A stretch of DNA of 46,655 bases, from NCBI GenBank assembly GCA_050178385.1, contig JBFXGD010000008.1:1-46655 (forward strand). The letters run 5' to 3'. The DNA comes from Calditrichaceae bacterium. GTDB taxonomy: Bacteria; Calditrichota; Calditrichia; Calditrichales; JBFXGD01. Numbering within the stretch: the first letter of the stretch is position 1; every line of letters begins with the position of its first letter. A program made the position numbers and the translations under genes. Of this stretch, positions 5,604 through 33,253 are shown one piece after another. A model generated the notes under the pieces. That model was given only the letters and a program-made list of their open reading frames with translations. It had not been told where the DNA came from and ran no database searches.

Positions 5604-6443
5604 ATGGCCCATATTGTACCGGATAAAAAAAAGGACTATGCGATCATTTTGGGCGCTTCCAGCGGATTTGGTGAAGCGGTTTCTCTTGAACTTGCCGGTA
5701 ATGGATTCAATATAATCGGAATTCATATGGATCGCGGCAGCGGCCTGAAAAAAGTTGAACAAATCAAACGGCAGATAACAGATTTCGGAGTTGAAGCTTT
5801 ATTTTTTAACATAAATGCCGCATCGGAAAAAAACCGTGAAGAAGTTCTCCAATCCATTCAGTCACATTTTTCGGAAACCGGTTCGGATAAAAAAATAAAG
5901 GTTCTGCTGCACTCTCTCGCCTTCGGATCCTTGGCGCCGTTCATTCATAACAATCCAAAAGACCGACTTACCCAAAAACAGATGGAAATGACATTAAACG
6001 TGATGGCTAATAGCCTTGTTTACTGGACACAGGATTTATTTCACGGTGATCTTCTTGCAAAAGGCACAAAAATTTTTGCCATGACAAGTTCCGGATCCAG
6101 CAGAGTGATTCCATTCTACGGCGCAGTGTCCGCCGCAAAAGCCGCTCTCGAGTCCCATATTCGTCAGCTGGCACTCGAACTCGCGCCATTTGGGATGACA
6201 GCGAATGCCATCCGCGCCGGTGTCACTTATACTCCAGCCTTAAGAAAGATTCCAGGACATGAAACGATGATTGATCTGGCTCTCAGTCAAATTCCGTTTA
6301 AAAGGCTGACCCAGCCGGTGGATGTCGCAAAATTCATTTCATCATTGGTGACATCCGATGAATTATGGGCAACCGGCAACATTTTCAACGTGGACGGCGG
6401 AGAAATGATTTCTGCTTACCATTCAACTTTCACACAAAAATAA
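5604..6443 (+). CDS. SDR oxidoreductase, FabL/FabI-like enoyl-ACP reductase
   Basis: GASSGFG Rossmann motif; YGAVSAAK (YX6K) catalytic motif; TPALRKIPG. Confidence 0.8.
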   Translation: MAHIVPDKKKDYAIILGASSGFGEAVSLELAGNGFNIIGIHMDRGSGLKKVEQIKRQITDFGVEALFFNINAASEKNREEVLQSIQSHFSETGSDKKIKVLLHSLAFGSLAPFIHNNPKDRLTQKQMEMTLNVMANSLVYWTQDLFHGDLLAKGTKIFAMTSSGSSRVIPFYGAVSAAKAALESHIRQLALELAPFGMTANAIRAGVTYTPALRKIPGHETMIDLALSQIPFKRLTQPVDVAKFISSLVTSDELWATGNIFNVDGGEMISAYHSTFTQK

Positions 6444-6459
6444 ATGCATAAAATGTTTT

Positions 6460-6498
6460 AAAAAAAGCCCGGATCAGTTGTGAGACCGGGCTTTTTTT
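6460..6498 (+). terminator. Rho-independent terminator (A-run/T-run flanked, potentially bidirectional)
   Basis: AAAAAAAGCCCGG...CCGGGCTTTTTTT. Confidence 0.8.
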
Positions 6499-6599
6499 AT
6501 TTCCAATAAATTATGAAGTTGTAAAATAAATCCAATTTCTTTAAATTATTTTACACATAATATTCAATTTCCTTAATCCGTATCAAAATAAGGATTGTT

Positions 6600-7490
6600 A
6601 TGAGTTATCATTCCATTGTATTAGTCAAGCAGGTACCAGATACAGCTAATATTTCCGGGCAGGTTATGAAGCCTGACGGGACTGTTAATCGAGCCAAACT
6701 GCCCGCTATCTTCAACCCCGAAGACAAGGTCGCTTTGGAATTAGCCCTTCAATTGCGTGATAGATTCGGCGGCAAAGTAACAGCGATTTCAATGGGTCCG
6801 CCAAAAGCCTCAGAACTTCTGCGCGAATGTCTTTATATGGGCGCCGATGAGGTGTATTTGATCAGCGATCGAAAATTCGCCGGAGCGGATACACTGGCAA
6901 CATCCTATGTTCTGAGTGAAGCCGTGAAAAAAATCGGGAATTATGATTTTATTTTCGCGGGAAGGCAGGCGATCGACGGGGATACCGCGCAGGTAGGGCC
7001 GCAGACAGCGGAGAAACTGGGAATACCGCAGATTACCTATGCTGAGGAAATTATTGATCTTATGAAAAACAAGATTACTGTAAAGAGAAAAATTGATGGG
7101 GGCTATGAAATACTTGAAAGCAAAACCCCGGTTCTGATTACTGTAATTAAAGATGCCGCTCAGCCCCGTCCTTTTAAAGCCAGACGAGTGATGGCTTTTA
7201 AAAACGCCCGTTCGCTTATGGAGTTGGAGAAAATGACTGAGTCCAACTCCCTGCTTTATATTGATGGCCTTAAAGAAGAATATATTAACGAAAAATTATA
7301 CATTCCGACTCTGACAATTGATGACCTTGATGTGGAACCTGATCGTTGCGGATTAAACGGTTCACCAACAAAAGTGCATAAGGTGGAATCGGTTGTTCTC
7401 GGAGGAGGAACACATGAAAAGATTGATCCGACTAAAGACGGCATGAACCTCCTGGTTGACAAATTAATGGAAGATCATATTTTGGGATAA
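6600..7490 (+). CDS. etfB: Electron transfer flavoprotein beta subunit (FixA family)
   Basis: VKQVPDT, FAGADTLATS, GRQAIDGDTAQVGP motifs. Confidence 0.93.
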   Translation: MSYHSIVLVKQVPDTANISGQVMKPDGTVNRAKLPAIFNPEDKVALELALQLRDRFGGKVTAISMGPPKASELLRECLYMGADEVYLISDRKFAGADTLATSYVLSEAVKKIGNYDFIFAGRQAIDGDTAQVGPQTAEKLGIPQITYAEEIIDLMKNKITVKRKIDGGYEILESKTPVLITVIKDAAQPRPFKARRVMAFKNARSLMELEKMTESNSLLYIDGLKEEYINEKLYIPTLTIDDLDVEPDRCGLNGSPTKVHKVESVVLGGGTHEKIDPTKDGMNLLVDKLMEDHILG

Positions 7491-7501
7491 AGGTTTGACT
7501 T

Positions 7502-8518
7502 ATGAACAAATCAAACGAAGTCTGGGTATTTGTAGAGCAGCGTTCGGGTAAGCCGGCTGATGTAAGCTTTGAACTGCTGTCCAAAGGCAGAAAACTCGCG
7601 GACCGGTTAAAAGGGACCCTGAAATCTGTAGTCATCGGCGAAAAAATGGAAAATGTCGCCAAAGAATGTTTTAAGTACGGCGCGAAAGAAGTCCTTCTTG
7701 TTGATCATCCCGGTCTACGGGATTACAAAACTATGCCATACAGCAGAATCATGAGCGGACTTATTGATGAACATAAGCCAAGGATCGTGTTGTTTGGAGC
7801 GACATTTATAGGAAGGGACCTTGCCCCGCGCGTCGCATCATTCACCAAAAGCGGTCTGACCGCTGATTGTACCGACCTTCAAATATCAGATGTCACGTAT
7901 CTCAGAAATGAGTTTAAGGACCTGCTGCTTCAGATTCGTCCCGCTTTTGGCGGAAATATTATCGCGACCATCATAACTCCCGACACAGAAGTTCAGATGG
8001 CCACCGTCCGCGAAGGTGTGATGGAGATGTCTCCGCTGGATAAAGCGGTTAATGGCCGTATTGTAAATATTGAATACAGACCCTCAGATATCGATGAAAT
8101 GATCAGCATTATTGAAAGACATCATGAAGAAAACAAAATTAATCTGAAAGCGGCTCCGATTATAGTTGCGGGCGGATACGGGATTGGTTCCAAAGATCAA
8201 TTTAAACTGATACACGATCTGGCCAATGTTCTCGGAGGCGAAGTCGCGGGCAGCCGGGCTGCTGTGGATGCCGGTTTCATTCATCCTGAAAGACAGGTCG
8301 GACAGACCGGTGTCACCGTAAGACCAAAACTGTACATCGCATGCGGCATATCAGGCGCTATTCAACACCGGGCCGGTATGCAGGAATCCAATAAAATAAT
8401 CGCGATTAACACAGATCCTGAAGCGCCGATATTTGACATCTGTCATTACGGTATTGTCGGAGATGCCGCCCAGGTTATTCCAATGTTTATCGATGCTTAT
8501 AAGCATAAATTAAAATAG
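7502..8518 (+). CDS. etfA: Electron transfer flavoprotein alpha subunit (FixB family)
   Basis: GLTADCT, RPAFGGN, QVGQTG, GISGAIQH, AINTD motifs. Confidence 0.93.
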   Translation: MNKSNEVWVFVEQRSGKPADVSFELLSKGRKLADRLKGTLKSVVIGEKMENVAKECFKYGAKEVLLVDHPGLRDYKTMPYSRIMSGLIDEHKPRIVLFGATFIGRDLAPRVASFTKSGLTADCTDLQISDVTYLRNEFKDLLLQIRPAFGGNIIATIITPDTEVQMATVREGVMEMSPLDKAVNGRIVNIEYRPSDIDEMISIIERHHEENKINLKAAPIIVAGGYGIGSKDQFKLIHDLANVLGGEVAGSRAAVDAGFIHPERQVGQTGVTVRPKLYIACGISGAIQHRAGMQESNKIIAINTDPEAPIFDICHYGIVGDAAQVIPMFIDAYKHKLK

Positions 8519-8526
8519 AGGATATC

Positions 8527-10248
8527 ATGCCTAATTTTTTTTCCGAAAACACTGATTTGCTCTTTCAATTTGACAATTTAGATATCGAAGAAATTGTCGC
8601 GATCACCGAAAACAATTTTGAACAGGCAAAAGAATATAATTATGCGCCGAAAGACTATCAGGACGCGATAGATAATTATAAAAAAATATTGGAAATCGTC
8701 GGTGATATCGCCGGTAATTTCGTCGCTCCGCGCGCCGCGGAAGTTGACATCGATGAAGCGCAGATAGTTGACGGGCGGGTGTTTTATGCAAAGGGGACAC
8801 AGGAAGCGCTTGATCAACTTTCGAAAGCCGAACTGATGGGTGTCACACTGCCGCGTGAGTATGGCGGCTTGAATTTTCCTACTATCATTTATATCATGGC
8901 TATTGAGATGATTTCCCGGGCGGATGCTTCATTAATGAATTTGTTTGGACTTCAGGATATATCCGAGACTATCAACAAATTTGGCGATGACGATCAAAAA
9001 AAGGAATTTCTTCCGCAATTCTCCAGCGGCAAGAGCACGGGAGCCATGGTGCTGACTGAGCCTGATGCGGGATCTGATCTGCAGGCGGTAAAACTGCAGG
9101 CATATCAGGATGAAAATGGAAACTGGTTTCTGAGGGGAGTAAAACGATTCATCACGAACGGCGGTGGCGACATCCTTCTTGTCCTGGCCCGTTCAGAACC
9201 CGCCACCAAAGACGGACGCGGATTAAGTCTTTTTGTTTGTTACGGCGGTAAAAACGTTAAAGTCAGGCGCATTGAGCATAAACTGGGCATCCATGGTTCT
9301 CCCACATGTGAGCTGCAGTTTAATGACACACCCGCGCAATTAATAGGTAAAAGAAAATTTGGTTTGATTAAATATGTGATGGATCTGATGAACGGCGCGC
9401 GGCTTGGAGTCGCCGCGCAGGCATTGGGGATTTCGCAGGCTGCCTATGAAGAGGCTTTGAAATATGCCCGCGCCCGGGAGCAATTTGGTCAGGCCATTTA
9501 TAATATTCCGGTCGTGACAAATATGCTGATTGATATGCGTGTTTCGCTTGAAACGAACCGCTCCCTGCTTTACGCGACATCCAAATGGGTCGATCTGCGG
9601 AATAAACTCGAGGAGCATATCGAACATCTAAAAACGGAGGGAAAACCTTTTGCTGAGGAATCCACCCGTTTTAAAGATGCCTCCAAAATTGCGGCCCTGC
9701 TCACGCCGATTACAAAATATGTCCTTTCGGAAGCAGCGAATAAGATTGCTTATGATTCACTTCAAATTCACGGCGGCGCCGGTTATATGAGGGAATTTAG
9801 CGTTGAAAGACTTGTACGTGACGCCAGGATTACCAATATCTATGAGGGTACATCCCAGCTGCAGATCGTCGCGGCTACGGGCGGCGTCATCAATGATATA
9901 CTAGTCGATTATTTCTCCGCTAAGGAACAAAAATCTTTTAAGGGAAATTTAACCCGACTTGCCGATTATTTGAAACAGATACGTGAAATCTTCCTGGAAA
10001 GCCTTAAATATGTAACCGATAAAAATGATAAATATTATCAGGATGTCGCCGCTAAGGAGCTGGTTGAATTGTACAGTTACACTTTTATAGGATATCTGGT
10101 TCTCGATGAAGCTGAAATTGATCCCAAAAAAGTTTTTATCGCAAACCGCTACATCGTGAGCGCCCTTGCCAATGCCAGAAAAAACGCGGACTCGATAAAA
10201 AATGAACAATTTTCTGATTTACTCCACGCGGATGAAATTTTATCCTGA
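8527..10248 (+). CDS. Acyl-CoA dehydrogenase with C-terminal extension (ETF partner)
   Basis: LTEPDAGSDL, GVKRFIT, KLGIHGSPT, QIHGGAGY, NIYEGTSQLQ; in an operon with etfBA. Confidence 0.92.
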   Translation: MPNFFSENTDLLFQFDNLDIEEIVAITENNFEQAKEYNYAPKDYQDAIDNYKKILEIVGDIAGNFVAPRAAEVDIDEAQIVDGRVFYAKGTQEALDQLSKAELMGVTLPREYGGLNFPTIIYIMAIEMISRADASLMNLFGLQDISETINKFGDDDQKKEFLPQFSSGKSTGAMVLTEPDAGSDLQAVKLQAYQDENGNWFLRGVKRFITNGGGDILLVLARSEPATKDGRGLSLFVCYGGKNVKVRRIEHKLGIHGSPTCELQFNDTPAQLIGKRKFGLIKYVMDLMNGARLGVAAQALGISQAAYEEALKYARAREQFGQAIYNIPVVTNMLIDMRVSLETNRSLLYATSKWVDLRNKLEEHIEHLKTEGKPFAEESTRFKDASKIAALLTPITKYVLSEAANKIAYDSLQIHGGAGYMREFSVERLVRDARITNIYEGTSQLQIVAATGGVINDILVDYFSAKEQKSFKGNLTRLADYLKQIREIFLESLKYVTDKNDKYYQDVAAKELVELYSYTFIGYLVLDEAEIDPKKVFIANRYIVSALANARKNADSIKNEQFSDLLHADEILS

Positions 10249-10265
10249 TTGGCGCGGACTGTAAA

Positions 10266-10940
10266 ATGTGGGAAACCATAAAAATTAAAATAGACGAGCA
10301 GCGGTCTACCACCGGATTATTCACACCGGGATCGGAACATAAACCGGGAATTATTTTGGCGCATGGCGCCGGTGGTGATATGCGCGGTGAATTGCTTTCC
10401 GCGATTCATGAATATTTTGCCGGAAAGGGATATTCATTTCTTCGTTTTAATTTCCTGTATAAAGATCTGGGCAGGAAAGCGCCGGACCGGCAACCGGTTC
10501 TTATGGATACCTACCAAAAAGCGATTTCTTTTTTTATGGAATCGTCTCGCACCAATGGTAAATTAATCATTGGTGGAAAATCTATGGGGGGACGCATTGC
10601 ATCATATCTGAGTCCATCCATGAATATTTCGGGATTGCTTTTTTTAGGATATCCTCTTCATCCGGCCGGACATCCTGAAAAACTCAGGGATGAACACCTC
10701 TATGACCAAAATTTACCCATGCTGTTTATCCAGGGTACGAAAGACGCTCTCTGTAATTATGATCTTATGACCAATGTTTCGAAACGCATCGGACCGTCAG
10801 CCAAGTTGATTCCTGTTAAAGAAGGGAATCATTCCTTTTCCGTCCCTAAAAGAACAGGTCGTTCACAAGATGAAATTTTCAATTCGATCGTCGATAATGC
10901 GGATAGATGGATTCAGTCCAATTTTTATCAGACAATATAA
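10266..10940 (+). CDS. Alpha/beta hydrolase (KANL3/Tex30-like)
   Basis: LAHGAG, GGKSMGGR nucleophile elbow, GYPLHP, QGTKD, GNHSF. Confidence 0.85.
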   Translation: MWETIKIKIDEQRSTTGLFTPGSEHKPGIILAHGAGGDMRGELLSAIHEYFAGKGYSFLRFNFLYKDLGRKAPDRQPVLMDTYQKAISFFMESSRTNGKLIIGGKSMGGRIASYLSPSMNISGLLFLGYPLHPAGHPEKLRDEHLYDQNLPMLFIQGTKDALCNYDLMTNVSKRIGPSAKLIPVKEGNHSFSVPKRTGRSQDEIFNSIVDNADRWIQSNFYQTI

Positions 10941-11088: not shown

Positions 11089-13053
11089 ATGTTACAGATT
11101 CAGAATCTGAGTTATTCAATCGGTGAACGGGACTTGCTTAAAGAGATATCCTGGATTATAAATCCCGGTTTACGCGTGGCCCTGATCGGACCAAACGGCG
11201 CGGGCAAAACGACACTTCTGCGAATTTTAAATGGTGAACTTGAGACATCGCGCGGAAACATTATTAAACCGAGAACCTATAAAATCGGCTATCTGCCTCA
11301 GGAGGAGATCTCTGTTGATACCGGTTCCATTCTAAGTCTGGTCCTCGAAGGCCATCAGGAAATCATCGACATCGAAGATGAAATGAACTCGATCCATTCA
11401 CGGCTTGAATTCGGCGGTGAAGATCAGACATCCATACTCGAAAGACTCGGAGATCTGGAATCCAGTTATTCAGTCCTGGGTGGGTATGAACTTGAATCTC
11501 TTGCAAAAAAAATATTAGTCGGTCTGGGATTTAAGCAGACCGATTTTCACCGGCCTGTTTCCGACTTCAGCGGCGGCTGGCGAATGCGTGGCTATCTCGC
11601 CCGTATCCTTATCCAGCAGCCTGATCTTTTACTTCTTGATGAGCCTACAAATCACCTTGATCTGGAATCGCTCGAGTGGCTTGAAATTTATCTAAGGAGC
11701 TTTCCCGGAAGCATGATTATTGTCTCGCACGACCGGTTTTTTCTTGACCGCCTGGCTCAGGAAATCGCTGAAGTGGAACGCGGAATACTGACGCATTATG
11801 CGGGTAATTACCGTTTCTATGAAAAAAAGAAGGCCTTAATTCATGAGCAGCTTCTGAAGAAATGGGAAGAGCAGAAAGATGAACGGGAACGGCTGCAAAA
11901 ATTCATAGACCGGTTCCGCTATAAAGCTACCAAGGCCGCTCAGGTCCAAAGCCGCGTAAAGAGGCTGGAAAAATTAGAAGAAATCGAAATTCCAAAAGAA
12001 ACCAAATCCATCCATTTTAAAATCAAAGCGGATGTGGTGAGTTACCGGGAAGTCCTGCAAATAAGTGATCTGGATTTCCGGTATGATACGGAATGGGTAC
12101 TTCGCAATCTGAATCTTAATATCATTCGAGGTGAAAAAGTAGCCCTTGTCGGTGTTAACGGCGCCGGTAAAACCACCTTGACCCGGCTGATCACCGAACA
12201 ATTAAAACCGATTTCCGGAACGCTCAATCTTGGTGAGCGCGTTCAGACCGGATATTATGCGCAGCACCAGGTGGATACTTTAAATCTGGATAACACTATT
12301 TACGATGAAGTGGCATCCGCTGCCGCGCGTTCGTTCCAGCCAAAATTAAGGGATATTTTGGGAGTATTTCAGTTCAGTGGCGGCGATATTGAAAAAAAGA
12401 TCGGTGTACTTTCCGGTGGTGAAAAAGCCAGAGTCTCCCTGGCCAAAATTTTACTGTCACCCAGTAATTTCCTGATCATGGATGAACCCACAAACCATCT
12501 CGATTTGAAATCAAAGGAAGCCCTTGAAGTAGCATTAACAGATTACGACGGAACATTGTTACTGATATCCCATGACCGTTATTTCCTGGACAAGCTTGTG
12601 AACCGCGTGATCGAACTTAGGGATGGTAAACTCACGGAATATTTAGGTAATTATTCTGAATATCTCTCTAGAAGAGAAGAAATATCTTACAATGCACCTG
12701 CGTCGGAAACAGTGAGGCCGGATGATTCCGGGAAACCTGCTGCAAAGAAATCAAAAGAACAGAAACGGATTGAAGCTGAAGCCAGACAGAATGTGAGTAA
12801 GGAACGAAACAGACTCAAGAAGGAAATATCCCGACTGGAAGAAAAGATAGACATATTAACAAAACGACAATCAGAACTTGAAATTCAGCTTGCTGACCCG
12901 TCTACCTATCAGAATGCCGATCTGGCCGCAACTCTTCAGGTTGAATATAACCGGATTTCGGATGAAATGCCCGGTTTGGAAATTAAATGGGAACAGGCTC
13001 AACTGGAATACGAGACACTCCTGACTTCGATGGAACAACTATTAAACCAATGA
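11089..13053 (+). CDS. ABC-F family ATPase (YheS/Uup-like) with C-terminal coiled coil
   Basis: Two NBDs (GPNGAGKT, GVNGAGKT; FSGGW, LSGGE; DEPTNHLD twice), no transmembrane segments. Confidence 0.92.
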   Translation: MLQIQNLSYSIGERDLLKEISWIINPGLRVALIGPNGAGKTTLLRILNGELETSRGNIIKPRTYKIGYLPQEEISVDTGSILSLVLEGHQEIIDIEDEMNSIHSRLEFGGEDQTSILERLGDLESSYSVLGGYELESLAKKILVGLGFKQTDFHRPVSDFSGGWRMRGYLARILIQQPDLLLLDEPTNHLDLESLEWLEIYLRSFPGSMIIVSHDRFFLDRLAQEIAEVERGILTHYAGNYRFYEKKKALIHEQLLKKWEEQKDERERLQKFIDRFRYKATKAAQVQSRVKRLEKLEEIEIPKETKSIHFKIKADVVSYREVLQISDLDFRYDTEWVLRNLNLNIIRGEKVALVGVNGAGKTTLTRLITEQLKPISGTLNLGERVQTGYYAQHQVDTLNLDNTIYDEVASAAARSFQPKLRDILGVFQFSGGDIEKKIGVLSGGEKARVSLAKILLSPSNFLIMDEPTNHLDLKSKEALEVALTDYDGTLLLISHDRYFLDKLVNRVIELRDGKLTEYLGNYSEYLSRREEISYNAPASETVRPDDSGKPAAKKSKEQKRIEAEARQNVSKERNRLKKEISRLEEKIDILTKRQSELEIQLADPSTYQNADLAATLQVEYNRISDEMPGLEIKWEQAQLEYETLLTSMEQLLNQ

Positions 13054-13173
13054 CATTAATAATTATCAGCCAATTAAATTCAATTTTGATATTCTGTAAC
13101 CCTGATATTATCCCAACCTTTTTTCATCAACTTTTCTGACTGTCATAATCACAGGTTTTCGCCGGTTTCTGTG

Positions 13174-16100
13174 CTAATGTGATTCGTATCCTTTTAATCC
13201 ACCCTTTGGAACAATTAGCTTAAAAACTTCACGGCAAATTTCAATCATTTCACCATCCACATTGATAAATTCCGAACCATTTTTTTTGAACAGCGCTATA
13301 TTTGATAGCTCGAAAACTCCTCTGATTTTCTCAAGATAGTATTTCCATTCAACGTCAGTAAACTCTTTGACCTTTCCATGCGTGTACTGAGCTTCCATTA
13401 ACCTGTTTTTGGGATCAAAAAAGACAAAATTCCCCCGGGAAGCGCCACCAAGCATTTTTGTCCCGAGATATGGTCTCTCATTCAGACACAATTGCCCCCT
13501 GCTGTTAAAGTGCATACCTCCAAAGAAAAAGTTGCCCCCCATTAGTGATTCACCGGCATATTTTGTGGCTGAACCCAGGATCAATACTTCAAGATCCTGA
13601 CACCGCGTATCGTTTACAGAATTTGTCCAGCAGCGATCAACCACATTCCCCATGATGAATACCTTTCCCCCTTTGGAAGCGTATCCGCATACCTTGCCTG
13701 CATTTCCATATACATATAGATTCCCGTGATGCATACCCATTGCGCAGAAGTTTTGAGCATTCCCATGAAGCCGGATCGTTCCGCCCTGCATAAATGCTCC
13801 GAAATACTCACCCGCGGATCCGTACACATCCATGATGACATCATCCGTGTCACCACTGCCCATTACAGCCGTCGAAATCAGTCTTTGCCCGGTTGCCCGG
13901 TGTATAAGATATTTCCTCCAGCCCATATCATAAGCTCTGTTCAAAAACGCCGCGAGTGAGAGCACCGGATCCGAGCCCTCGGGTAAGAAACGACCGGCGT
14001 CTATAACCATGACGTGGTTCTCACCGGGTGTGATATTGAACGATCCGGCCTCCTCACGGCTGACATGAACAAAATTTGTAAATTGCGGTTCATTAGACCG
14101 GTCAAGAAGCTGATCAATAAAATATTGTACCGTATCAATCAATGAACTTTGAGCCTTCTCACCCGGATTTAGTGTTCTGGTTGCATCCCGCAGCCAGGTC
14201 AGAATTTCAAGTTTTTTAAAAAATGATGAATTATCTTCTGTTTCGGCAACTAATTTATTCAGCAGCCAGCCCAGATCATTGAACGTGATTAACGATAGAT
14301 TTTTTCTAAAAAACGCCCTGAAATCATTTTCCCAACCTTCAAAGGTGGCGACATCAGGCGGTTCAACCAGTTTCGCGCGCCTGATGCTGTAATGTTTTCC
14401 GGTGGATTCGATGATGATTTCCTTGCCGTATCTGTCAAAAAATTCGAATCCTGTAATCTTGTTTTTATCATCAAAATGGTAGCGGCTGATCATGCCTGAA
14501 CTTACCAGTACTTTATCAGGCATAGCCCCGTCGATTAATCCATCTTTATCCAGTAATTCCATCATTTTCTTTAGCGCCTGCTCTTCAGATGCAATCATGC
14601 TAAAAACACGGTCTCCCTCTTTCCAGAACGCGCTGACATTGGGGCGAAGATCGGCAGGATCTTTTAAGTCGACCCGTTCCGTTACTTTATTTTGCGGATC
14701 ATGACGAAGACAAAGATACTGATAGGGCCCGTCCGGTGAACTGGCGAACTCCACCCGCTGAATCTGTTCCAGCTTTGGTTTCAAAGCAGGATCGATCAAT
14801 TTTAAGTCATCCCCTGTTGTTGGTGAAAAGCTTTCGAACATTGCCCAGTCAGGGTAAGCCCATTCATCACCGATCAGATGAAATTTCAGCGCGGCAACGT
14901 CCGTATCGGTCGAGGCGAGTGGCGACAGACCAAATTGTTCCACACGCTGCCGGAGCGCTTCATAATTTGTCGTTTCACCGTTATGGGTCAATGCGGTATG
15001 CAGTTTTGTAAAAGGATGAGCATTCATCTGCTCAACCACAGATCCGGTTGCAAGCCTCACATGTATGATATTATTGGGCGCGTCAGGAGTCTCCCACGGG
15101 ATCACCCGTCCCGCCGTTTTCCAGGTTGCAAAATTTTTCCCGCAGGACATGACCGCCGCGATTTTAAATTCCCTTGCCTGATACATATGCTTATTGCGTT
15201 CAAAAGAATATTCCGAGATAAAATCTCTGAGTAACGTCAGAAGATCAATACTCAATTTTTCGTACTCCGACTGATTTATATTTTTTATATCTAACGCCAT
15301 CTTGCGTGTTCCTGCAAACTCGATCAATTTGTCCGCGTCGACAATCGAAGTGTAAAGAATGCGTGACAAATTTATAGAATGATCAAACACGTACAGATCT
15401 TCAGCCTTTTGAAGAAAATCGGGCTGATCTTTGTAATTATCTCTTGTCACATTGGGAAACTGATGTATCAGGAAATGAGACCAGTCATATTTGAGCAGCG
15501 TATCTTCCACATATTTGTAAATAACATCCTTCTTTACCCGCGCGAAATATCTGAATATATCACCCGGATCGGTATTTTCATTACCAAACTCCCTGTAGTC
15601 AATCTCATCACCTTTTTCGTCCTGTTTATACCGGTCCCGCGTTTTTTGCACATTAGTTTCTCCAAAAAACTCAAAGTAAGGATCCAGAAAAACAGTTTTA
15701 ATTTTGTGCATTAATTCTTCCCTGAGATAAAGGGTAAGACTGCGCGCTTCTTTCCTAAGAAAAATTTCATCAAAAGAACGTCCTTCAGCCTTCCACTGAA
15801 GAGCTAAATTTGATTCAATTTCTTTTTGTAATACTCCTTTTACCATTATACTATAGCCGTATTCATTCTGATGCTCCGGGAAACACAGCGACTTTGCCAC
15901 TCCGACTCCGTCCATCCCGCGGTTGCGCATGGCGTTCAACGCGCTGTCAAGAATGTATCCCGGGACAGGCAATGATCCGTTGATCGCCGCGACACCGCAA
16001 TTGCTTTGTCCCGCGGCATGTTCTGTCTGCTCAACAAACAGCTTTTGATCCAATTCGATTTCATTTTGAATTTCTTTGTTAATCCGAAAGCGATGATCCA

Positions 16101-19100
16101 CCCGTTCCTTGAGTCCGATCCAGTGCAATTTATCAAACCGGCCCCGCAATTCACGGATATCTTTGAATCCAAGAGCGGCGATTCCCCTGATAACGTGCAT
16201 TTGCATCATAGTAAAAGCATTGATCATCTGGATGGTGTTTTTTTCTACATCCCGGAGTTTCTGCATGGTCAGGTTACTTGTGGCAATACCTCTTGAACAA
16301 CCGTCATGACAATTCCTGTTTCTGTCACAGCCGATTGCAACAAGCGGGGCCGTACCCCAAATAATACCATCCGCTCCCAGGGCAACTGACTTTATTACGT
16401 CTTCATAAGTACGGATACCGCCGGACACCATAAATTTTACATGGTTTCTCAATCCATCCTTGACAAGCCTGGAGTGAATAAGGGGTATCGCGTATTCAAT
16501 ATGCATTCCCATCTGTCCCTTGATGATATTCGGAGAGGCGCCCGTCCCCCCTCTAGGCCCGTCAAGCCATATTTCAATTTTCATCCCGAATTTACTGGCA
16601 TATTGTTTCATCTCATCTGTGTAGTCTTCGGGATTAATTTCACCAAACCTGGTTTTTATGATCTCATCCGTATTGTCTTTGGCGATCCTTCCCAGACCTG
16701 TCGCGATGAATTCAATGTCGATCGACGGTGAAACTTTCACCGAAATAACCGCCTCCGGGTTTATCATATGTACCACATCAACAAATGCTTTTACATCTTC
16801 TATCGAATAACAGTTGTGAAACGGGAAGGGTGATATGATACTTGAGTAGGAATAATTTATTACCGATTCACAAAGTCCGATAAGATTTTCAAAATCTATA
16901 TCATCCAATACCTTTTCTTTATGCAAACGGTACACCGCTTCCTGAATCTCAAAAAGTAATTCTTTCAAATTTTCGGTAACCGTCTTCAGTTCCTGTGCTT
17001 CATCGAGAATTTTCAATCCGGATTGGGCGATATTCCGGAGCGGGTGATTTTCCTTCTTAATTATCTTATTCAACTGCCCGAAAAGTCCTTCAATCTTTTC
17101 CACGTTGATTTTCTCAACGCCTTCAATCCCGCGCAGATAGGAAACAAGCTTGTTTACCTTCTTAGCCAAAATATGTCCGCCGATACCCATTTTTGCTCCC
17201 TGGCTGTAAGCGATGACCACTCTTCGGGCTTTCCGGATCGTTTCTTTAGTGACACCAAATAATCCTGTTTTCATCTCTGTCGAAACAAATGGCTCGTCAT
17301 CCTTATCAACAACAACCATAAAATGAAACGGCTTTAATGAAGGATAGTGTTTGATCTGTTCAAAGACAGTCGGACTGGAGTCTTCTGTTATACCTTTTGA
17401 GTGCAGGATTGATCTGATCTCATCAACCGTATATTGCTCTCCGCTCACAAACAGCGGGCGGATAAGCTGGATGACATTTTCTGAAAAGAAAATCGGCTCA
17501 CCCTTCGAATTAAGGAAGAAGCTTGTAGGATACCCCCCTTCACCGGTATCATACTGAATTCCAAGTTCCCGAGCAGCCGTGACATGGGCTCTCCATGTAT
17601 CAAGCCCGATCGAACCGACGGATTTTCCTCCAAACATCCAGGGAGCTTCCAATACAAGATCCTTATCCAAAGTCAAAGCCGTTCTGACTCCATCCAGCGC
17701 TGAATCCGGGATATCCATCGGATCTTTGTTATAGAGGATTTTCATGACATCAAAACCGTCACCCAACAAACCGGTCGGTTTAATATTCGTGAAATCCAGC
17801 ATAGAAAGATCACCCGCAGCCATTTTCCCCAGCGATTCTATAAGAGATCCGGGCCACACATAATCCCTTTTGTAAAGAGTTTGATTTGTATCTCCCAACC
17901 GGTAAAAATTGTGCGGTGAGCTAAGGGGTTTGATTTTCTGTTTCAGATCCATATATGTTCTGACGTATTTATTGTCAATGAATTCACCTGCTATAATATC
18001 CCCGTTTAATTTCTCATATACCGCAATCAGTGAATCATTCTCAAAAACATCTCGTTGAAGCCGGTTTTCGAGCTGATGGAAATCAATCAACCGTCCTTCT
18101 TCACCAACCGTTTTCTTGATATCTTTAAAACCGGATGCCCCTAATACTTCAAGGATCTGTACTTTTCTTGACTCAGCCTGATTATTCAATCTTTTAACCG
18201 CCTCATCAATATCAAGACTGAGCAGCTTTTCAGTGGTGGTCTTTTCTTCAACTATGGCTTTATAAGAAGTCGGATCAAGCGCGAGCAAAGCGGCGAAATC
18301 TATCATCGTACCTTCAGCTCCGCGCTGAATTGTTTTTTGAGAGTCAGATGCGAGACGAATCCCACCGGATGCGATGATACTTAATTCATGTCTGCGGCCG
18401 ATCCGCATCAGATAATGATGAAGCGCCCTTACGGCACCGGACGTAACAAAATATTCATCCTTATTCCGCATTCCGTGAATATGCAGAATATCAATTCCCT
18501 GATCCAGCAGATGGTTCACCTTCTCTTTGACTTTTCCCACCGGGCTCAGCGATCCTATCAGGTCATACTCGGAAATCTCAACATACCCGCTTATCAACGG
18601 CGCTTGTTTATTACCCGCTTTAACCGATTCCCGTATATAACTGAGCGTCCTTTCAATATTTGGATGATATTCGACTTCGAAAACAGGCATCTGCCATAAA
18701 TCCGTCAAAAACTCCCGGTTTGTACGAGGATTGACAATCAGCCGATGGATTAGTTCATGATCGACCCGCGGCATAATAACCTGCGGCAGATGTTCATATT
18801 CTCCCTCTTTGATGATAAAATTATAATTTTCCAGAAGTCTTTCGAGTTCGATCGCCACCAGTGTTTTCTGCTTTTCCGAAACTTTGATCAGAGCCAGTTC
18901 GACCCGGCCGTTACTTTCCAGACTGACCGTGTTATACAGAATAGGACTCATGAGTTTAATCGTTGGATAAGGTTCATTAAGCAGGTTACCCTGTTCGTCA
19001 AATCTGCAGTAACTGTCTCTCTTTCCCAGAATTATCGAAAGCTCCTCATCCGGATCCCCCTCATGCAATCTGTTTTGCGCGGGGCCTACGATATGAAAAT

Positions 19101-21801
19101 GCGCGAATCGCTCAGCATCAAATCCGATGCCCATATGCCTGTCTCCCTGTCCCATCCCGGATACAGGAATTTGCCCGTTAGATGCTTCTTTATCAATTTC
19201 CATGATAATATCTTCGGTGACATAACGATCCGCCATTTCAGTCAACTGATTTGAGCGGTGGACCTTTGTAGTGTCATGGATCCTGTTTTGCTCCTTCACC
19301 CAGTATTTTTTTTCTTCAAGATCGGGCGCGTTAAATATCAGCCTGTCCATATATTGCCGTTCTTCCTGAGCGACTTTGTTTTGTGGACAATAATTGACAC
19401 ACGCGTTGCACAAAGCGCAGTTCAGGTCTAACAATTCCGGTATCTGGCGCGGTTTACCCTCACGGGCTCCATACATGCAGGCATTTTCATCGCTACACAT
19501 ACCGCAATGGATACATGTTGTCGAATCAATAAATAATTTTCCGTATTCAAATCCCCGTGGATAAAGAATTTTTAATCCGTGAGACAGATGAGATTTTTCA
19601 TCTTTTTGCTCAGCTAAAGTATGCTCGGTATAAAGAGGGCTTTCTTTCATTACCTGCCAAAAGCGATCAATAAATTCTTTTTTCTCCTGATGACTCAACG
19701 CAAGGGCTTCGATAAACCTGTTATCTTCTTCCACTAAATCAAACAATTTTGTCAGCGGTATATCCGTTGGACAGACATGAGTACAATTATCACATCGTGT
19801 GCAAATTAAAAAACCGGCCGCTTCTTCCTTTGTGATGGCTTCACCTTCAACAAGTCTTAAAGCCGTTTTTCGCCTTGTGATCGGGGTAGCCGGTCCATAT
19901 AGGCCAAAAACGTCTGAAGTTGGGCAAACGCGCTCACAACTGTCACATTCGGCACATGGAGCGATTAATTCAGCCAGCGGTTTTTTATGAGCTTTTAGTC
20001 CGGGCGGTACCATTTTGGGAAAAACCGAGCTGCTGATATTCCATACTAATCTTTCAAACGGGTATGACAAAACATATTTTTTACCCTGCTGTCTTTTATA
20101 GGATGTGTTTACAATCCAGTGATTAAAAATGGGCGTCAGTCTCGAAAATACGCGGAAAGCTAATTTTTGGTTTTTTGTATTGATAAATTTTCCGCGGTTA
20201 ATCAGTCCATGTCTGTCAGATTCTGACTTTAGTTTGCTCAGGGAATGAAATTTCTCTCCGGCGATCTGTTTCCACTTCTTGAAAAAAGGAAAATTCCAGA
20301 TTCCAATTCCATAGGGCCGGGCGCCAAAATAAACCGCGACTTCCGTCATCAAGGGGACCAGCGCGAAATAAAGTTTATGTCTCAGTGTCCTTGTATCGGC
20401 CAGGATTAATGATTGCAGAAGCAGCTCACCGCTTGATAACAAATGAGCTTCGGTTTTTAAATCAATATTTAAAAGTTTTTGCAGAATTTGCATGATCATT
20501 TTTTGGTAGGACAGAAATGCGTCCAGTGGAATAATTGTTTCACTCACCAGCATGGAAGGCCCTTTTTGCTTCATCTGGACAGGAAGGAAGCGGTGATTCC
20601 ATAATTTATGAGCAAGAACGGTAGATACCTGTAAATAGGTGAGCTGATGAAATCTGATTTTTTGTCCGGAGGCGGCAAAAAGTCTTGTTTTTAACGCCTT
20701 CTGATAATCTTCTTTATCATCAAACTGCATTACGACGATATGATCAAAGTTAGCCATCTCCTGCAAATACTCATAATCTTCCCTGGCTTCGGCAAGCCTG
20801 ATCTGATCATTACGACGCAATGCTTCGGATGATCTCTTCTCCGAATGTTCTTTCTCTATGCGGAAGGTTTCTTCAATATATGATTTGTCAAAATATATGA
20901 CAGATGTGGGTTTGATTTCTTTTTCCTTTAATACTCGCATAAATTGGCCGGCATCTTCCGGCTCTTTAAAGGAAAAAGCAAAAGGTTTGGAAAGATAACT
21001 CTCTTTTCTTACCCTGAGTATTGCTCCGATAATGATCCCAACTTGCCCTTCACTCCCAAAATAATGGTCAAAATCATCCTGATTAGAATCGACAACCCTG
21101 AGTTCTCCCTGTGGTGTTATAACAAGAATGGAAAATATTGACTGGCTTATGTGCCCGTATTTATAGCTTCCGAGACCTAATCCCCCGGTTGCAATCCAAC
21201 CCGTTATCGTGCCGCTGTTCTTGTTTGTTATCTCCTGGCGCAGCGCGAATCCGTTCTCTTTCAGGTAATTCCGCGCATCAGGAAATATGACACCCGCGCT
21301 AAATCCGAAAACCGCGTTTTCCCTGTCAAGGTATTTGAAATCGAGATATGACAAATCCAAAATGATGTCTTCATTGATCGGCACCGCTCCGCCAAAGGGC
21401 CATGTTCCCGCTCCGCGGATTGTATAGTGGATATTGTTATTATGAGCCCATTCAACAAATATTCGTGTATCTTCAATGGTCCCGGGGCGAATGATAAACG
21501 AACATTTCACATTCAGCAGCCATTTCTTAAAAAGCCTGGGGACCATATGCGTACCTGTATCGGCCGAATAGATTTCCCGCTGTACGGCTCCCGGGATAAA
21601 AACTTCAGTCGCCGGACTGAGTAATTGCCCGAGTGCGTCTATTTGCTCCTGATATTTTTTGGAAATCGGTAGATTTTCCCTGAATCCATCCAGAATCAAT
21701 CGCCGTGATTTTTGCTGTTCTCTTACTTTGTCCTGGCAAGACTGATTAAGCAGAAAGGAATATATTTTGTCCCGATCGCCCACCGGAAGTGCATTCATCA
21801 T
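13174..21801 (-). CDS. Giant fusion: FAD-binding oxidoreductase + 4x[4Fe-4S] + two glutamate-synthase barrels + class II glutamine amidotransferase + GXGXG domain
   Basis: Uninterrupted ORF 13174..21864; likely start 21801 (GGGAG RBS). Motifs: IRGAGTWPFGGAVP; four CxxCxxC ferredoxin motifs; DTGEGG, SQGAKMGIGGH, DGPRGGTGA, SGGIRT, CDRNRNCHDGC; NCGVAAI, RNRGMDGVG, HVRLATG, NAHPF, HNGET; GSAGEYFGAFMQGG-type repeats. Confidence 0.85.
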   Translation of the reverse strand: MMNALPVGDRDKIYSFLLNQSCQDKVREQQKSRRLILDGFRENLPISKKYQEQIDALGQLLSPATEVFIPGAVQREIYSADTGTHMVPRLFKKWLLNVKCSFIIRPGTIEDTRIFVEWAHNNNIHYTIRGAGTWPFGGAVPINEDIILDLSYLDFKYLDRENAVFGFSAGVIFPDARNYLKENGFALRQEITNKNSGTITGWIATGGLGLGSYKYGHISQSIFSILVITPQGELRVVDSNQDDFDHYFGSEGQVGIIIGAILRVRKESYLSKPFAFSFKEPEDAGQFMRVLKEKEIKPTSVIYFDKSYIEETFRIEKEHSEKRSSEALRRNDQIRLAEAREDYEYLQEMANFDHIVVMQFDDKEDYQKALKTRLFAASGQKIRFHQLTYLQVSTVLAHKLWNHRFLPVQMKQKGPSMLVSETIIPLDAFLSYQKMIMQILQKLLNIDLKTEAHLLSSGELLLQSLILADTRTLRHKLYFALVPLMTEVAVYFGARPYGIGIWNFPFFKKWKQIAGEKFHSLSKLKSESDRHGLINRGKFINTKNQKLAFRVFSRLTPIFNHWIVNTSYKRQQGKKYVLSYPFERLVWNISSSVFPKMVPPGLKAHKKPLAELIAPCAECDSCERVCPTSDVFGLYGPATPITRRKTALRLVEGEAITKEEAAGFLICTRCDNCTHVCPTDIPLTKLFDLVEEDNRFIEALALSHQEKKEFIDRFWQVMKESPLYTEHTLAEQKDEKSHLSHGLKILYPRGFEYGKLFIDSTTCIHCGMCSDENACMYGAREGKPRQIPELLDLNCALCNACVNYCPQNKVAQEERQYMDRLIFNAPDLEEKKYWVKEQNRIHDTTKVHRSNQLTEMADRYVTEDIIMEIDKEASNGQIPVSGMGQGDRHMGIGFDAERFAHFHIVGPAQNRLHEGDPDEELSIILGKRDSYCRFDEQGNLLNEPYPTIKLMSPILYNTVSLESNGRVELALIKVSEKQKTLVAIELERLLENYNFIIKEGEYEHLPQVIMPRVDHELIHRLIVNPRTNREFLTDLWQMPVFEVEYHPNIERTLSYIRESVKAGNKQAPLISGYVEISEYDLIGSLSPVGKVKEKVNHLLDQGIDILHIHGMRNKDEYFVTSGAVRALHHYLMRIGRRHELSIIASGGIRLASDSQKTIQRGAEGTMIDFAALLALDPTSYKAIVEEKTTTEKLLSLDIDEAVKRLNNQAESRKVQILEVLGASGFKDIKKTVGEEGRLIDFHQLENRLQRDVFENDSLIAVYEKLNGDIIAGEFIDNKYVRTYMDLKQKIKPLSSPHNFYRLGDTNQTLYKRDYVWPGSLIESLGKMAAGDLSMLDFTNIKPTGLLGDGFDVMKILYNKDPMDIPDSALDGVRTALTLDKDLVLEAPWMFGGKSVGSIGLDTWRAHVTAARELGIQYDTGEGGYPTSFFLNSKGEPIFFSENVIQLIRPLFVSGEQYTVDEIRSILHSKGITEDSSPTVFEQIKHYPSLKPFHFMVVVDKDDEPFVSTEMKTGLFGVTKETIRKARRVVIAYSQGAKMGIGGHILAKKVNKLVSYLRGIEGVEKINVEKIEGLFGQLNKIIKKENHPLRNIAQSGLKILDEAQELKTVTENLKELLFEIQEAVYRLHKEKVLDDIDFENLIGLCESVINYSYSSIISPFPFHNCYSIEDVKAFVDVVHMINPEAVISVKVSPSIDIEFIATGLGRIAKDNTDEIIKTRFGEINPEDYTDEMKQYASKFGMKIEIWLDGPRGGTGASPNIIKGQMGMHIEYAIPLIHSRLVKDGLRNHVKFMVSGGIRTYEDVIKSVALGADGIIWGTAPLVAIGCDRNRNCHDGCSRGIATSNLTMQKLRDVEKNTIQMINAFTMMQMHVIRGIAALGFKDIRELRGRFDKLHWIGLKERVDHRFRINKEIQNEIELDQKLFVEQTEHAAGQSNCGVAAINGSLPVPGYILDSALNAMRNRGMDGVGVAKSLCFPEHQNEYGYSIMVKGVLQKEIESNLALQWKAEGRSFDEIFLRKEARSLTLYLREELMHKIKTVFLDPYFEFFGETNVQKTRDRYKQDEKGDEIDYREFGNENTDPGDIFRYFARVKKDVIYKYVEDTLLKYDWSHFLIHQFPNVTRDNYKDQPDFLQKAEDLYVFDHSINLSRILYTSIVDADKLIEFAGTRKMALDIKNINQSEYEKLSIDLLTLLRDFISEYSFERNKHMYQAREFKIAAVMSCGKNFATWKTAGRVIPWETPDAPNNIIHVRLATGSVVEQMNAHPFTKLHTALTHNGETTNYEALRQRVEQFGLSPLASTDTDVAALKFHLIGDEWAYPDWAMFESFSPTTGDDLKLIDPALKPKLEQIQRVEFASSPDGPYQYLCLRHDPQNKVTERVDLKDPADLRPNVSAFWKEGDRVFSMIASEEQALKKMMELLDKDGLIDGAMPDKVLVSSGMISRYHFDDKNKITGFEFFDRYGKEIIIESTGKHYSIRRAKLVEPPDVATFEGWENDFRAFFRKNLSLITFNDLGWLLNKLVAETEDNSSFFKKLEILTWLRDATRTLNPGEKAQSSLIDTVQYFIDQLLDRSNEPQFTNFVHVSREEAGSFNITPGENHVMVIDAGRFLPEGSDPVLSLAAFLNRAYDMGWRKYLIHRATGQRLISTAVMGSGDTDDVIMDVYGSAGEYFGAFMQGGTIRLHGNAQNFCAMGMHHGNLYVYGNAGKVCGYASKGGKVFIMGNVVDRCWTNSVNDTRCQDLEVLILGSATKYAGESLMGGNFFFGGMHFNSRGQLCLNERPYLGTKMLGGASRGNFVFFDPKNRLMEAQYTHGKVKEFTDVEWKYYLEKIRGVFELSNIALFKKNGSEFINVDGEMIEICREVFKLIVPKGGLKGYESH

Positions 21802-22071
21802 AAAAATTCTCCCATGCTTGGAAGTTTGAGCTGCTTTAGATGTACCGCGTGATTGATTAAACATCTTTCTCTGTCAGCAAACAGTAAAGATTGAAACTTA
21901 TCCATTAAACAGAAGGGGAATTATGATTGAAATCAACAATTACTCTGATTAAAAAAATTTACATCCTCAAATTTTATGATCCTGCTTATTTAGGTTCGGT
22001 TGACGCGGCGGTCGATAAAACATCAAGAAGGAGATCTTAAGAGGTTCAGTATTCGGGTTCATTAGAAAAAT

Positions 22072-22100
22072 AAAAAAAAGCGGCAATTTTAGTTGCCGCC
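22072..22100 (-). terminator. Rho-independent terminator after metK
   Basis: GCGGCAA/TTGCCGC stem with an A-run on the plus strand (U-run on the minus strand). Confidence 0.75.
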
Positions 22101-22107
22101 TTCATAA

Positions 22108-32337: not shown

Positions 32338-33186
32338 TCAATTATTTATGGTAGCATTAATTGGGGCCATTGTTCTGTTTTTTCGGCCTCTGGAAGGATG
32401 GACGGTTTCCAGCATACCGAAACCTAGATCGTTCAGCTGTCCAAGACCAAGATCATATATAAGTTGCAAAACTTCAGGGTCGGCTTTAATATGAATTGGT
32501 GCCAGTATCCCCCGAATCTGCTCAGGCGCATCTTTTGAATTTTCGAGAGTAATGACTTTGGTGATTCTATTATTCTTTCTTCGAATATATTCTCTGTCAA
32601 ACTCAAGATTTAACCTGATATTGCTCTTCTTCTGTTTATTAATCAGGTTATATTTATATATGAGATCTTTTTCAATGTAATCAAGGTACTCTTCTTCTCC
32701 CGGCAGTAAATATCCGCCGTTGAATTGATACATAGCCCTGTGTCTGTTGTTAAATCTCTGACGATATACCGCCACCGGTGACAGACAAGTAAATTGCGCT
32801 TCCGCTTCTTTAAATTCGGGTGACGGAATGAATTCAATCCCCCCCACATCAAACCAGGCATTTTTTATTTTAATTTTCCCCCTGTCCCGTAGTTCTTTGG
32901 CAATGAGTCCGAGAAATTGATAATAGGGAGAAGAAATATACCAGTAAAATTCACCCGACAAGATACCAATCTGAAAATCCTTAATCTCGCGTTCCGGTAT
33001 GATTAACTGTGAGAAAGTATACATATCGAACTTTGGGCGCTCTCCATCGATTCCCGGGAGCAATGAGTTAAGATACCGGCGATACTCAAATGTGAGCTGA
33101 TTTATCAGTTTTACAAGATAATAGTTTGTGTTGATAGGCAAAAAGGTCCGGGACCGTTTATTCTTGAATGTGATCTTAATTCGCAT
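32338..33186 (-). CDS. cas6: Stand-alone Cas6-family RAMP protein, probably catalytically degenerate
   Basis: MRIKITF, LPIN, YTFSQL, YISSP, CLSPV, LIYDLGLGQLNDLGFGM (G-rich loop); likely start 33186 (GAGAG 6 nt upstream); ORF track start 33204. Confidence 0.85.
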   Translation of the reverse strand: MRIKITFKNKRSRTFLPINTNYYLVKLINQLTFEYRRYLNSLLPGIDGERPKFDMYTFSQLIIPEREIKDFQIGILSGEFYWYISSPYYQFLGLIAKELRDRGKIKIKNAWFDVGGIEFIPSPEFKEAEAQFTCLSPVAVYRQRFNNRHRAMYQFNGGYLLPGEEEYLDYIEKDLIYKYNLINKQKKSNIRLNLEFDREYIRRKNNRITKVITLENSKDAPEQIRGILAPIHIKADPEVLQLIYDLGLGQLNDLGFGMLETVHPSRGRKNRTMAPINATINN

Positions 33187-33235
33187 AAGCATCTCTCGTT
33201 TCACTGAAGATTAAATTAATTTTATGATGTTAATA

Positions 33236-33253
33236 TTGCAATGAATGTGCCAA
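33236..33253 (-). promoter_or_regulatory. sigma-54 (-24/-12) promoter of cas6
   Basis: Minus strand TTGGCACATTCATTGCAA matches TGGCAC-N5-TTGC exactly, 50 nt upstream of the start. Confidence 0.85.

Follow-up and report, generated by a model that had tools for sequence, protein, structure and literature searches.

We analyzed contig JBFXGD010000008.1 (assembly GCA_050178385.1) from a Calditrichaceae bacterium, a stretch of 46,655 nucleotides hereafter called the window. Its minus strand carries a single very long gene, here called the giant gene, which encodes a flavin and iron-sulfur module, two barrels, a glutamine amidotransferase domain, and a GXGXG beta-helix region in one polypeptide. 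A first-pass annotation had described one open reading frame (ORF) of about 2,875 amino acids (aa), and the frame at 13174..21864 (-) is indeed open, with an ATG at 21801. Residue numbers follow the translated 2,896-codon frame. The features of the locus are as follows.

22076..22103 (-): terminator-like hairpin and T-run after metK, upstream of the giant gene
13174..21864 (-): longest open frame of the giant gene, 2,896 codons and a stop, no internal stops
21799..21813 (-): probable start ATG (21801-21799) with a Shine-Dalgarno-like GGGAGA (21813-21808), spacing 6 nt
13174..21801 (-): probable giant gene from the ATG at 21801, 2,875 aa
20182..21657 (-): flavin adenine dinucleotide (FAD) module, VAO/PCMH FAD-binding and cap domain with the D-lactate-dehydrogenase fold, aa 70-561 (Pfam and model)
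19759..19959 (-): first dicluster domain, helical Fer4_8/GlcF type, aa 636-702 (two CxxCxxCxxxCP motifs)
19381..19533 (-): second dicluster domain, bacterial-ferredoxin type (Fer4_21), aa 778-828 (Pfam)
17995..19236 (-): barrel 1, predicted counterpart of the central domain of glutamate synthase (GltS), aa 877-1290 (model superposition)
16105..17994 (-): barrel 2, flavin mononucleotide (FMN)/synthase domain of GltS, aa 1291-1920 (Pfam and alignment)
16297..16329 (-): cysteine triad C1846-x5-C1852-x3-C1856, placed where GltS has its [3Fe-4S] ligands (invariant, 24/24)
16000..16104 (-): linker, aa 1921-1955, corresponding to the propeptide found in the split-operon amidotransferase subunit described below, ending in an invariant (S/T)-N before Cys1956
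14365..15999 (-): class-II, N-terminal nucleophile (Ntn) glutamine amidotransferase domain, aa 1956 to about 2500 (Pfam and alignment)
13177..14067 (-): C-terminal GXGXG beta-helix region, aa about 2600-2896 (Pfam match at aa 2672-2779)

The Pfam matches in the giant protein run in the order FAD_binding_4, Fer4_8, Fer4_21, Glu_synthase (in three stretches), GATase_6, and GXGXG. Together with invariant motifs, they uphold the domains and the N-to-C order named in the first-pass annotation. Unless stated otherwise, invariance refers to an alignment of 24 homologues. All 16 cysteines of the four CxxCxxCxxxC motifs were invariant in 24 of 24 (C637/640/643/647 and C688/691/694/698 in the first dicluster domain, C784/787/790/796 and C816/819/822/826 in the second), in agreement with the four [4Fe-4S] motifs noted earlier. 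The amidotransferase had been placed from 15999 onward, and the codon of Cys1956 lies exactly there (15999-15997). A gltD gene had been reported missing from the window, and we likewise found no GltD-like gene among the 28 other window ORFs, which are unrelated housekeeping genes, nor one conserved beside 55 related loci.

We then considered whether the gene is real and where it occurs. A word-indexed search returned 214 relatives; among the 120 listed, full-length proteins measured 2,786-2,992 aa with 53-91% identity, and a second, short class measured 2,512-2,565 aa. An alignment of 24 of these 120 homologues showed that the short class has the same architecture without nine loops. At their sources, the relatives bore no names more specific than "glutamate synthase-related protein" or "FAD-binding protein". 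When species-representative genomes were scanned, 195 relatives emerged, the best 55 loci of which were all in metagenome-assembled genomes (MAGs). The MAGs carrying relatives were labelled Calditrichota, KSB1, Zhuqueibacterota, Vulcanimicrobiota, Gemmatimonadota/Gemmatimonadetes, Krumholzibacteria, Brocadiia, Syntrophaceae, and others, so that related proteins of 2,500-3,000 aa occur under the labels of several phyla besides Calditrichota. Barrel 1 alone, searched against 1.84 billion representatives, gave 186 matches at E<=1e-3 and 9 at E<=1e-30, and the family is small in sequence space.

The source genome is a fragmented MAG of 320 contigs, and in a few other MAGs of the phylum (G033:C169, G036:C204, and G072:C131) the gene is read in two or three adjacent frames, which are either assembly frameshifts or real disruptions. 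That the giant gene is itself an assembly chimera or a decaying pseudogene is nevertheless scarcely credible. In a survey of 86 genomes of the phylum, the giant was matched in 35, and the whole frame was open end to end in 18 of these, single-contig chromosomes included, while hundreds of alignment columns were invariant among the homologues. Short contig pieces from four public runs of four studies, none of which spans the whole gene, cover parts of it with no indel within the ORF, and 34 of 40 listed strain differences fell at third codon positions. Reads splitting the frame, which the first-pass annotation had named as the outcome that would speak against it, did not appear in the contigs of these four studies. 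The sole indel over 13000-22000 was one missing base at window position 21951, in the upstream untranslated region, and was seen in a single contig (depth 2.4) of run X2. ORFs in G069, G071, and G072 that seemed to encode the N-terminal part by itself were rejected as truncations at contig ends.

Proteins of about 700-740 aa were found to share the PYGIGIWN flavoprotein variant and the first dicluster domain with the giant. A metagenome scan with an alignment of such stand-alone flavoproteins gave 79 loci (L094-L172 range), in which the parts of the giant are encoded by three consecutive genes.

Split gene 1: about 740 aa, equivalent to giant residues 70-735, FAD module and first dicluster domain
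Split gene 2: about 960-1,000 aa, equivalent to giant residues 778-1915, ferredoxin, central barrel, and FMN barrel
Split gene 3: about 860-900 aa, equivalent to giant residues 1953-2885, amidotransferase and GXGXG region

Where the contig left room, gene 2 came after gene 1 in 41 of 46 loci, and genes 2 and 3 both followed gene 1 in 22 of 24. Stops and starts of the genes mostly overlap, and four-gene and partly fused operon variants were also seen. Identity between split-operon proteins and the giant was 23-42%. The operons contain the same three modules in the same order, PYGIGIWN variant included, and the giant is the fully fused form of this conserved three-gene system. The split operons differ from it in having separate genes, an extra dicluster ferredoxin between the barrels of gene 2 (e.g., L130:10100-12988 (+)), Gly-Gly before the catalytic cysteine, and no His-rich loop in barrel 1. 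With this additional domain, the split enzymes would hold six [4Fe-4S] sites versus four in the giants. Because operon and fusion share the same order, the FAD/Fe-S module is tied functionally to the synthase far more firmly than a single fusion would tie it. It travels with synthase parts, as fusion or operon, in most loci examined, which backs a role in electron input. In a quick tree, the long and short fused classes grouped together (SH-aLRT, an approximate likelihood ratio test, 99), and the split forms stood separately from them (93). This tree has no established root, was built from hand-picked rows (15 long, 9 short, 28 split, 1 canonical) over regions that took in part of barrel 1, and has a very long canonical outgroup branch, so that we claim no order of events from it.

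In the FAD module, FAD_binding_4 (PF01565) matched residues 123-257 (1.4e-22), and FAD-oxidase_C (PF02913) exceeded its cut-off in the short-class homologue P0091 (3.4e-9). A predicted model of residues 22-880 (predicted local distance difference test, pLDDT, 86.4; predicted template modeling score, pTM, 0.88) superposed on mitochondrial D-lactate dehydrogenase (mLDHD) with a VIA Z of 32.4 and a root-mean-square deviation (rmsd) of 2.9 over 429 aligned residues, on LctD with Z 31.2, on D-2-hydroxyglutarate dehydrogenase (D2HGDH) with Z 30.5, and on alkyl-DHAP synthase with Z about 27. LctD was also the best profile match for the FAD domain (3.7e-28), and MurB was among the sequence matches to the FAD-binding subdomain. 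The module shares the FAD-binding and cap fold of the D-2-hydroxyacid dehydrogenases (mLDHD, 8jde; LctD of Ldh-EtfAB, 7qh2; D2HGDH, 6lpn; GlcD) at Z 30-32 and rmsd about 3 A over about 430 residues, and it differs from them in being joined, by fusion or within an operon, to Fe-S domains and the core of a GltS. The WxxR arginine (R425) and the C-terminal DPxGxxNxGK tail are kept, and the polar cap-domain residues W422, R425, K432, E442, H474, Y518, and N524 were invariant in 65 of 65 sequences. A Pfam scan of the giant found no NAD(P)-binding domain.

Escherichia coli YdiJ likewise has an FAD dehydrogenase followed by a helical dicluster domain, which takes electrons off the flavin. We take this YdiJ or GlcD-GlcF-type architecture to comprise FAD_binding_4, Fer4_8, and CCG domains with a quinone or disulfide site. 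The giant, in contrast, has no CCG domains, and its clusters lead to a ferredoxin domain and a glutamate-synthase core; its match to the NCBIfam YdiJ model was weak (3.2e-8) and far under the cut-off.

Barrel 2 matched Glu_synthase in three stretches (6.8e-61) and is collinear with residues 854-1172 of Azospirillum brasilense GltS (1ea0). It carries the motifs TGEGG and QGAKxGxGGH, and K1558 and R1578 fall at positions that we take to be the 2-oxoglutarate ligands of GltS; Q1555, K1558, and R1578 were unchanged in all 24 homologues. This barrel is also enlarged by two insertions, about 70 and 90 aa long. Barrel 1 alone gave a sub-threshold Glu_synthase match in Pfam (18.9 bits versus a cut-off of 20.4), and it had been described in the first pass as a "degenerate" GltB-type barrel. 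This description needs correction. In the model, residues 877-1919 (model residues 108-1150) superposed on residues 448-1182 of 1ea0, which comprise the central and FMN domains (Z 28.4, rmsd 4.7, 608 residues aligned), and on this predicted structure barrel 1 is the counterpart of the GltB/GltS central domain. Glu_syn_central (PF04898) exceeded its cut-off in the homologue P0062 (2e-5; E 0.27 in the giant itself), and an ESM Atlas look-up of barrel 1 returned Glu_synthase/central clusters only.

The two barrels also resemble each other (BLASTP 1e-9 over 125 residues). Barrel 1 keeps an SGGIR phosphate-binding-like motif and lacks the Fe-S loop; it is probably an old duplicate of the FMN barrel. 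This raises the question of whether the GltB central domain is a decayed copy of the FMN barrel, of which the giant looks like an intermediate. The most conserved loop of barrel 1, a His-rich stretch at residues 899-935 with pLDDT below 50, is found in fused proteins only. As a family-wide catalytic site, this loop was rejected, being absent from the split relatives.

The nearest known enzymes are the alpha subunit GltB of bacterial NADPH-dependent glutamate synthase (A. brasilense, 1ea0/2vdc/6s6s; Bacillus subtilis GltA, 7mfm) and the ferredoxin-dependent enzyme of Synechocystis (1ofd/1llw). Like GltB/GltS, the giant has central and FMN domains in the same mutual arrangement, the QGAK/K/R synthase motifs, three Cys in the place of the [3Fe-4S] ligands, an Ntn amidotransferase in which no glutaminase residue is missing, and GXGXG. 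Its order is FAD - Fe-S - Fe-S - central - FMN - amidotransferase - GXGXG, versus amidotransferase - central - FMN - GXGXG in GltB. The amidotransferase therefore stands after the FMN barrel rather than at the N-terminus, and it is the only displaced part; the permutation claimed earlier holds for this domain, whereas the central, FMN, and GXGXG parts are not otherwise permuted. The giant further differs from GltB in its N-terminal 860-residue module with FAD and four [4Fe-4S] sites in place of a GltD partner or free ferredoxin, in a central-like barrel that still resembles the FMN barrel, in the two large FMN-barrel insertions, and in the x5/x3 spacing of the triad. Its FMN barrel has GGH where bacterial GltS has GGQ.

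In the C-terminal part of the giant, GATase_6 matched residues 2265-2332, and GXGXG (PF01493) scored 43.5 bits against a cut-off of 32.5 (3.4e-11). Cys1956-GVAA, R2270, N2295-G2296, and D2320 were invariant in 24 of 24 homologues, the last three aligning with GlmS R73, N98-G99, and D123, which we take to be the glutaminase residues of that enzyme. In class-II amidotransferases, catalysis relies on an N-terminal Cys whose alpha-amino group is free. In the giant, the nucleophilic Cys is residue 1956 of the translated frame and not N-terminal. For comparison, a passage of a preprint on GltA describes the C1A mutant as inactive (bioRxiv 10.1101/2021.04.12.439528).

The product had been called a single-chain enzyme, which now appears doubtful. 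Because the Ntn nucleophile needs a free alpha-amino group yet Cys1956 is internal, the precursor is probably cleaved between N1955 and C1956 and so cut in two. All 42 long fused proteins compared have Asn right before the Cys, and all 22 short ones have Asp (64 of the 120 listed homologues); this fixed Asn/Asp may take part in the cleavage. In the products of split-operon gene 3, 15-50 residues ending in Gly-Gly precede CGV in 25 of 26 cases, which suggests that removal of a propeptide must be needed even in these subunits. An analogy is offered by the self-processing Ntn hydrolases and by propeptide removal from GltB and PurF, where, as in the giant, the Cys must become N-terminal and a conserved residue stands before it; the difference is that here the "propeptide" would be a catalytic chain of 1,934 residues. 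Whether an Ntn amidotransferase lying 1,955 residues deep in a polypeptide is freed by self-cleavage is a question that this gene raises.

Nitrogen enters biomass through glutamate synthase, whose known electron sources are NAD(P)H via GltD and ferredoxin, with F420 predicted. We favor, at somewhat better than even confidence, the reading that the giant is a GltD-independent glutamate synthase in which electrons would enter at the N-terminal FAD and the glutaminase would be activated by cleavage before Cys1956. Building on the observed architecture, conservation, operon-fusion relation, folds, and motif states, we infer which way the electrons flow, where the chain is cut, which cofactors it holds, and what it catalyzes as follows. 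The 2,875-aa precursor would be cut at N1955/C1956, and the two resulting chains, about 1,934 and 941 residues long, would remain associated. Glutamine would be hydrolyzed at Cys1956, and the ammonia would pass to the FMN barrel and add to 2-oxoglutarate held by K1558 and R1578, after which FMN would reduce the imine. The electrons would run from the N-terminal FAD through the four [4Fe-4S] clusters and the [3Fe-4S]-like Cys-triad site to FMN. The source genome, 94% complete, has two glutamine synthetases; no GATase_2 was found in it, nor any GXGXG copy besides that of the giant.

Several observations weigh against this proposal. The source genome has several glutamate dehydrogenases, which offer alternative routes, and four Fer4_20 (GltD-like) ORFs outside the window, the most GltD-like of which adjoins an NfnA-like gene. 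In view of these four ORFs, the self-sufficiency claimed in the first pass is a hypothesis. Across the 86 genomes surveyed in the phylum, the giant occurs without canonical GltB in 29, canonical GltB without the giant in 23, both in 6, and neither in 28; the two are only weakly complementary, and related genomes are not independent. The Cys triad is spaced C-x5-C-x3-C versus C-x5-C-x4-C in GltS. The AlphaFold models are cofactor-free, and their most conserved loops have pLDDT <50.

The FAD site, in addition, lacks the metal triad and the catalytic His of D-2-hydroxyacid dehydrogenases, whose metal site we take to be formed by the His-His-Glu residues of HxGDGNxH and GEHGxG. Of HxGDGNxH, only the first His is kept (H474) and the second is absent; GEHGIG has become KPYGIG, with E-H replaced by P517-Y518, of which Y518 is invariant. 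These states were read from P0091 aligned to LctD and mLDHD and carried over to the giant by alignment. Because the metal site and catalytic His are lost, the usual donors of this fold are not implied. That an organic donor is oxidized at the FAD, as suggested earlier, is a conjecture: the module has the D-lactate-dehydrogenase fold but has lost the catalytic residues. The donor cannot be read from the fold, and the module is a predicted electron input only.

The same loss of the metal site would also fit an unlikely but by no means negligible alternative, in which the glutamate-synthase chemistry is unchanged and the FAD module, instead of acting as a small-molecule dehydrogenase, is where a reduced carrier docks or delivers its electrons. 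This carrier could be electron-transfer flavoprotein (ETF), the partner of LctD in LctD-EtfAB; a ferredoxin or flavodoxin that reaches the clusters; or NAD(P)H, by analogy with MurB, with which the FAD-binding fold is shared. The ranking of ETF-partnered LctD among the closest structures and as the best profile match, the presence of MurB among the sequence matches, and ETF genes about 5 kb off in the same window all favor such docking. However, the invariant polar residues of the cap look like a real substrate pocket, the ETF genes are not conserved beside giants and here belong to an opposite-strand acyl-CoA dehydrogenase operon, and an NAD(P)-binding domain was not found in the giant. A departure from glutamate synthesis itself seems to us distinctly unlikely, be it amination of another 2-oxo acid, a non-reductive exchange, or an oxidative run with electrons leaving via the FAD. 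The two family-specific FMN-barrel insertions and GGH for GGQ could be read in this way, and the six genomes with both the giant and canonical GltB hint at non-redundant roles. There are also GltS-like three-part enzymes with other reactions: N-methylglutamate synthase (MgsABC) has three GltB-domain-like subunits and no net redox input. An FAD/Fe-S input module would argue for a redox reaction, unlike that of N-methylglutamate synthase. Moreover, neither the Lys/Arg pair at the 2-oxoglutarate positions nor the glutaminase residues that bind Gln vary, and the source genome, with its glutamine synthetases, holds no other GltB-type amidotransferase or GXGXG.

The cleavage could also fail to occur, leaving the amidotransferase domain as a silent scaffold in an enzyme that uses free ammonia. 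Such a state agrees with the internal position of the domain in every fused family member, and cleavage of the giant is itself deduced; we consider it improbable all the same, since the glutaminase residues, the Cys included, are invariant across about 40-90% identity, which is unexpected for a silent domain. The Asn/Asp before the Cys, moreover, is fixed only in the fused forms, and a propeptide precedes the Cys in the split forms too. Finally, a more elaborate joint reading, which we hold to be very improbable, has the precursor self-cleave at N1955|C1956 via the fixed Asn/Asp into a two-chain machine for redox-neutral "hydrogen-borrowing" amination. A 2-hydroxy acid, e.g., 2-hydroxyglutarate, would be oxidized at the metal-free FAD site to a 2-oxo acid, which would be aminated at FMN with glutamine nitrogen while the same two electrons return via the Fe-S wire; on this reading barrel 1 may hold a second flavin.

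We compared the architecture with published descriptions. No paper describing it was found in the full-text literature searched, whose coverage leaves out subscription journals, and no NCBIfam model reached its cut-off for the giant or the three split-operon proteins. The earlier statement that this architecture is not characterized holds within the literature and curated families searched. The section of a review on the forms of glutamate synthase names only NAD(P)H, ferredoxin, and eukaryotic fused forms (Vanoni 2021, PMC8097209), and the portion of a Geobacter RpoN paper that bears on the subject concerns a GltD-type operon (PMC2725144). The chemistry of glutamate synthase is known; what is new is the electron-input module, the domain order, and the fusion state, together with the relation to the three-gene operon, the pattern of propeptide and -1 residue, the loss of the metal site, and the identity of barrel 1 as the central domain.

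The union of a lactate-dehydrogenase-like flavin and iron-sulfur module with every part of glutamate synthase in one gene suggests that certain uncultured bacteria drive their nitrogen assimilation with electrons fed in at that module; of the 35 genomes of the phylum that carry the giant, 29 showed no canonical GltB. With the giants, the known inputs would be joined by a fourth, namely a flavin/Fe-S module that resembles D-lactate dehydrogenase and is built into the enzyme, which raises the question of where the electrons for nitrogen assimilation come from in the organisms concerned. If true, a glutamate synthase that couples to its donor within one gene would also be of interest to biocatalysis.

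Regarding the borders of the giant gene, the ATG at 21801 is the likely start. The product then has 2,875 aa, as does the 91%-identical homologue P0002, and the tblastn alignments of relatives begin at query residues 21-36 of the 2,896-aa frame. Because the terminator-like hairpin separates metK from it, the giant gene is probably transcribed from its own promoter. Upstream of the gene, no sigma-54 consensus was found, and a sigma-70 promoter scan did no better there than on shuffled sequences. Beside the giants, a HAMP histidine kinase occurred in 9 of 55 loci and a sigma-54 response regulator in 4 of 55, with no other recurrent neighbors; beside split operons, a methyltransferase was found in 16 of 76 loci and an AsnC/Lrp regulator in 9 of 76. 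No redox partner or transporter was conserved beside giants (55 loci) or split operons (76 loci).

In the window, a row at 5604-10940 (+) comprises an enoyl-reductase-like short-chain dehydrogenase/reductase, ETF beta, ETF alpha, a 573-aa acyl-CoA dehydrogenase with a C-terminal extension, and an alpha/beta hydrolase. This row lies a few kb from the giant gene on the opposite strand, and the linkage recurs only in a same-genus genome. A perfect sigma-54 -24/-12 consensus, TGGCACATTCATTGCA, lies at 33237-33252 (-), about 33 nt upstream of an ORF at 32338-33204 (-) that encodes 288 aa with a match to the Cas6 C-terminal domain. Tandem Repeats Finder reported no tandem arrays anywhere in the window.

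The source genome also encodes a separate Glu_synthase protein of 544 aa on another contig (L001, G000:C131; ORF 1405-3039 (-)), which has an N-terminal Rieske [2Fe-2S] domain and a full Glu_synthase FMN barrel (8.4e-89) and is unrelated to the giant. About 220 bp from it, on the opposite strand, lies a nitronate-monooxygenase-like gene (149-1183 (+)). Distant relatives of barrel 1 were found at other positions in very long proteins, P0164 (3,016 aa), P0186 (3,444 aa), and P0246 (3,152 aa), for example at residues 2692-2848 of the 3,444-aa protein, and also in P0173 (2,508 aa) and P0179 (1,494 aa). More fusion architectures of the giant's system probably exist.

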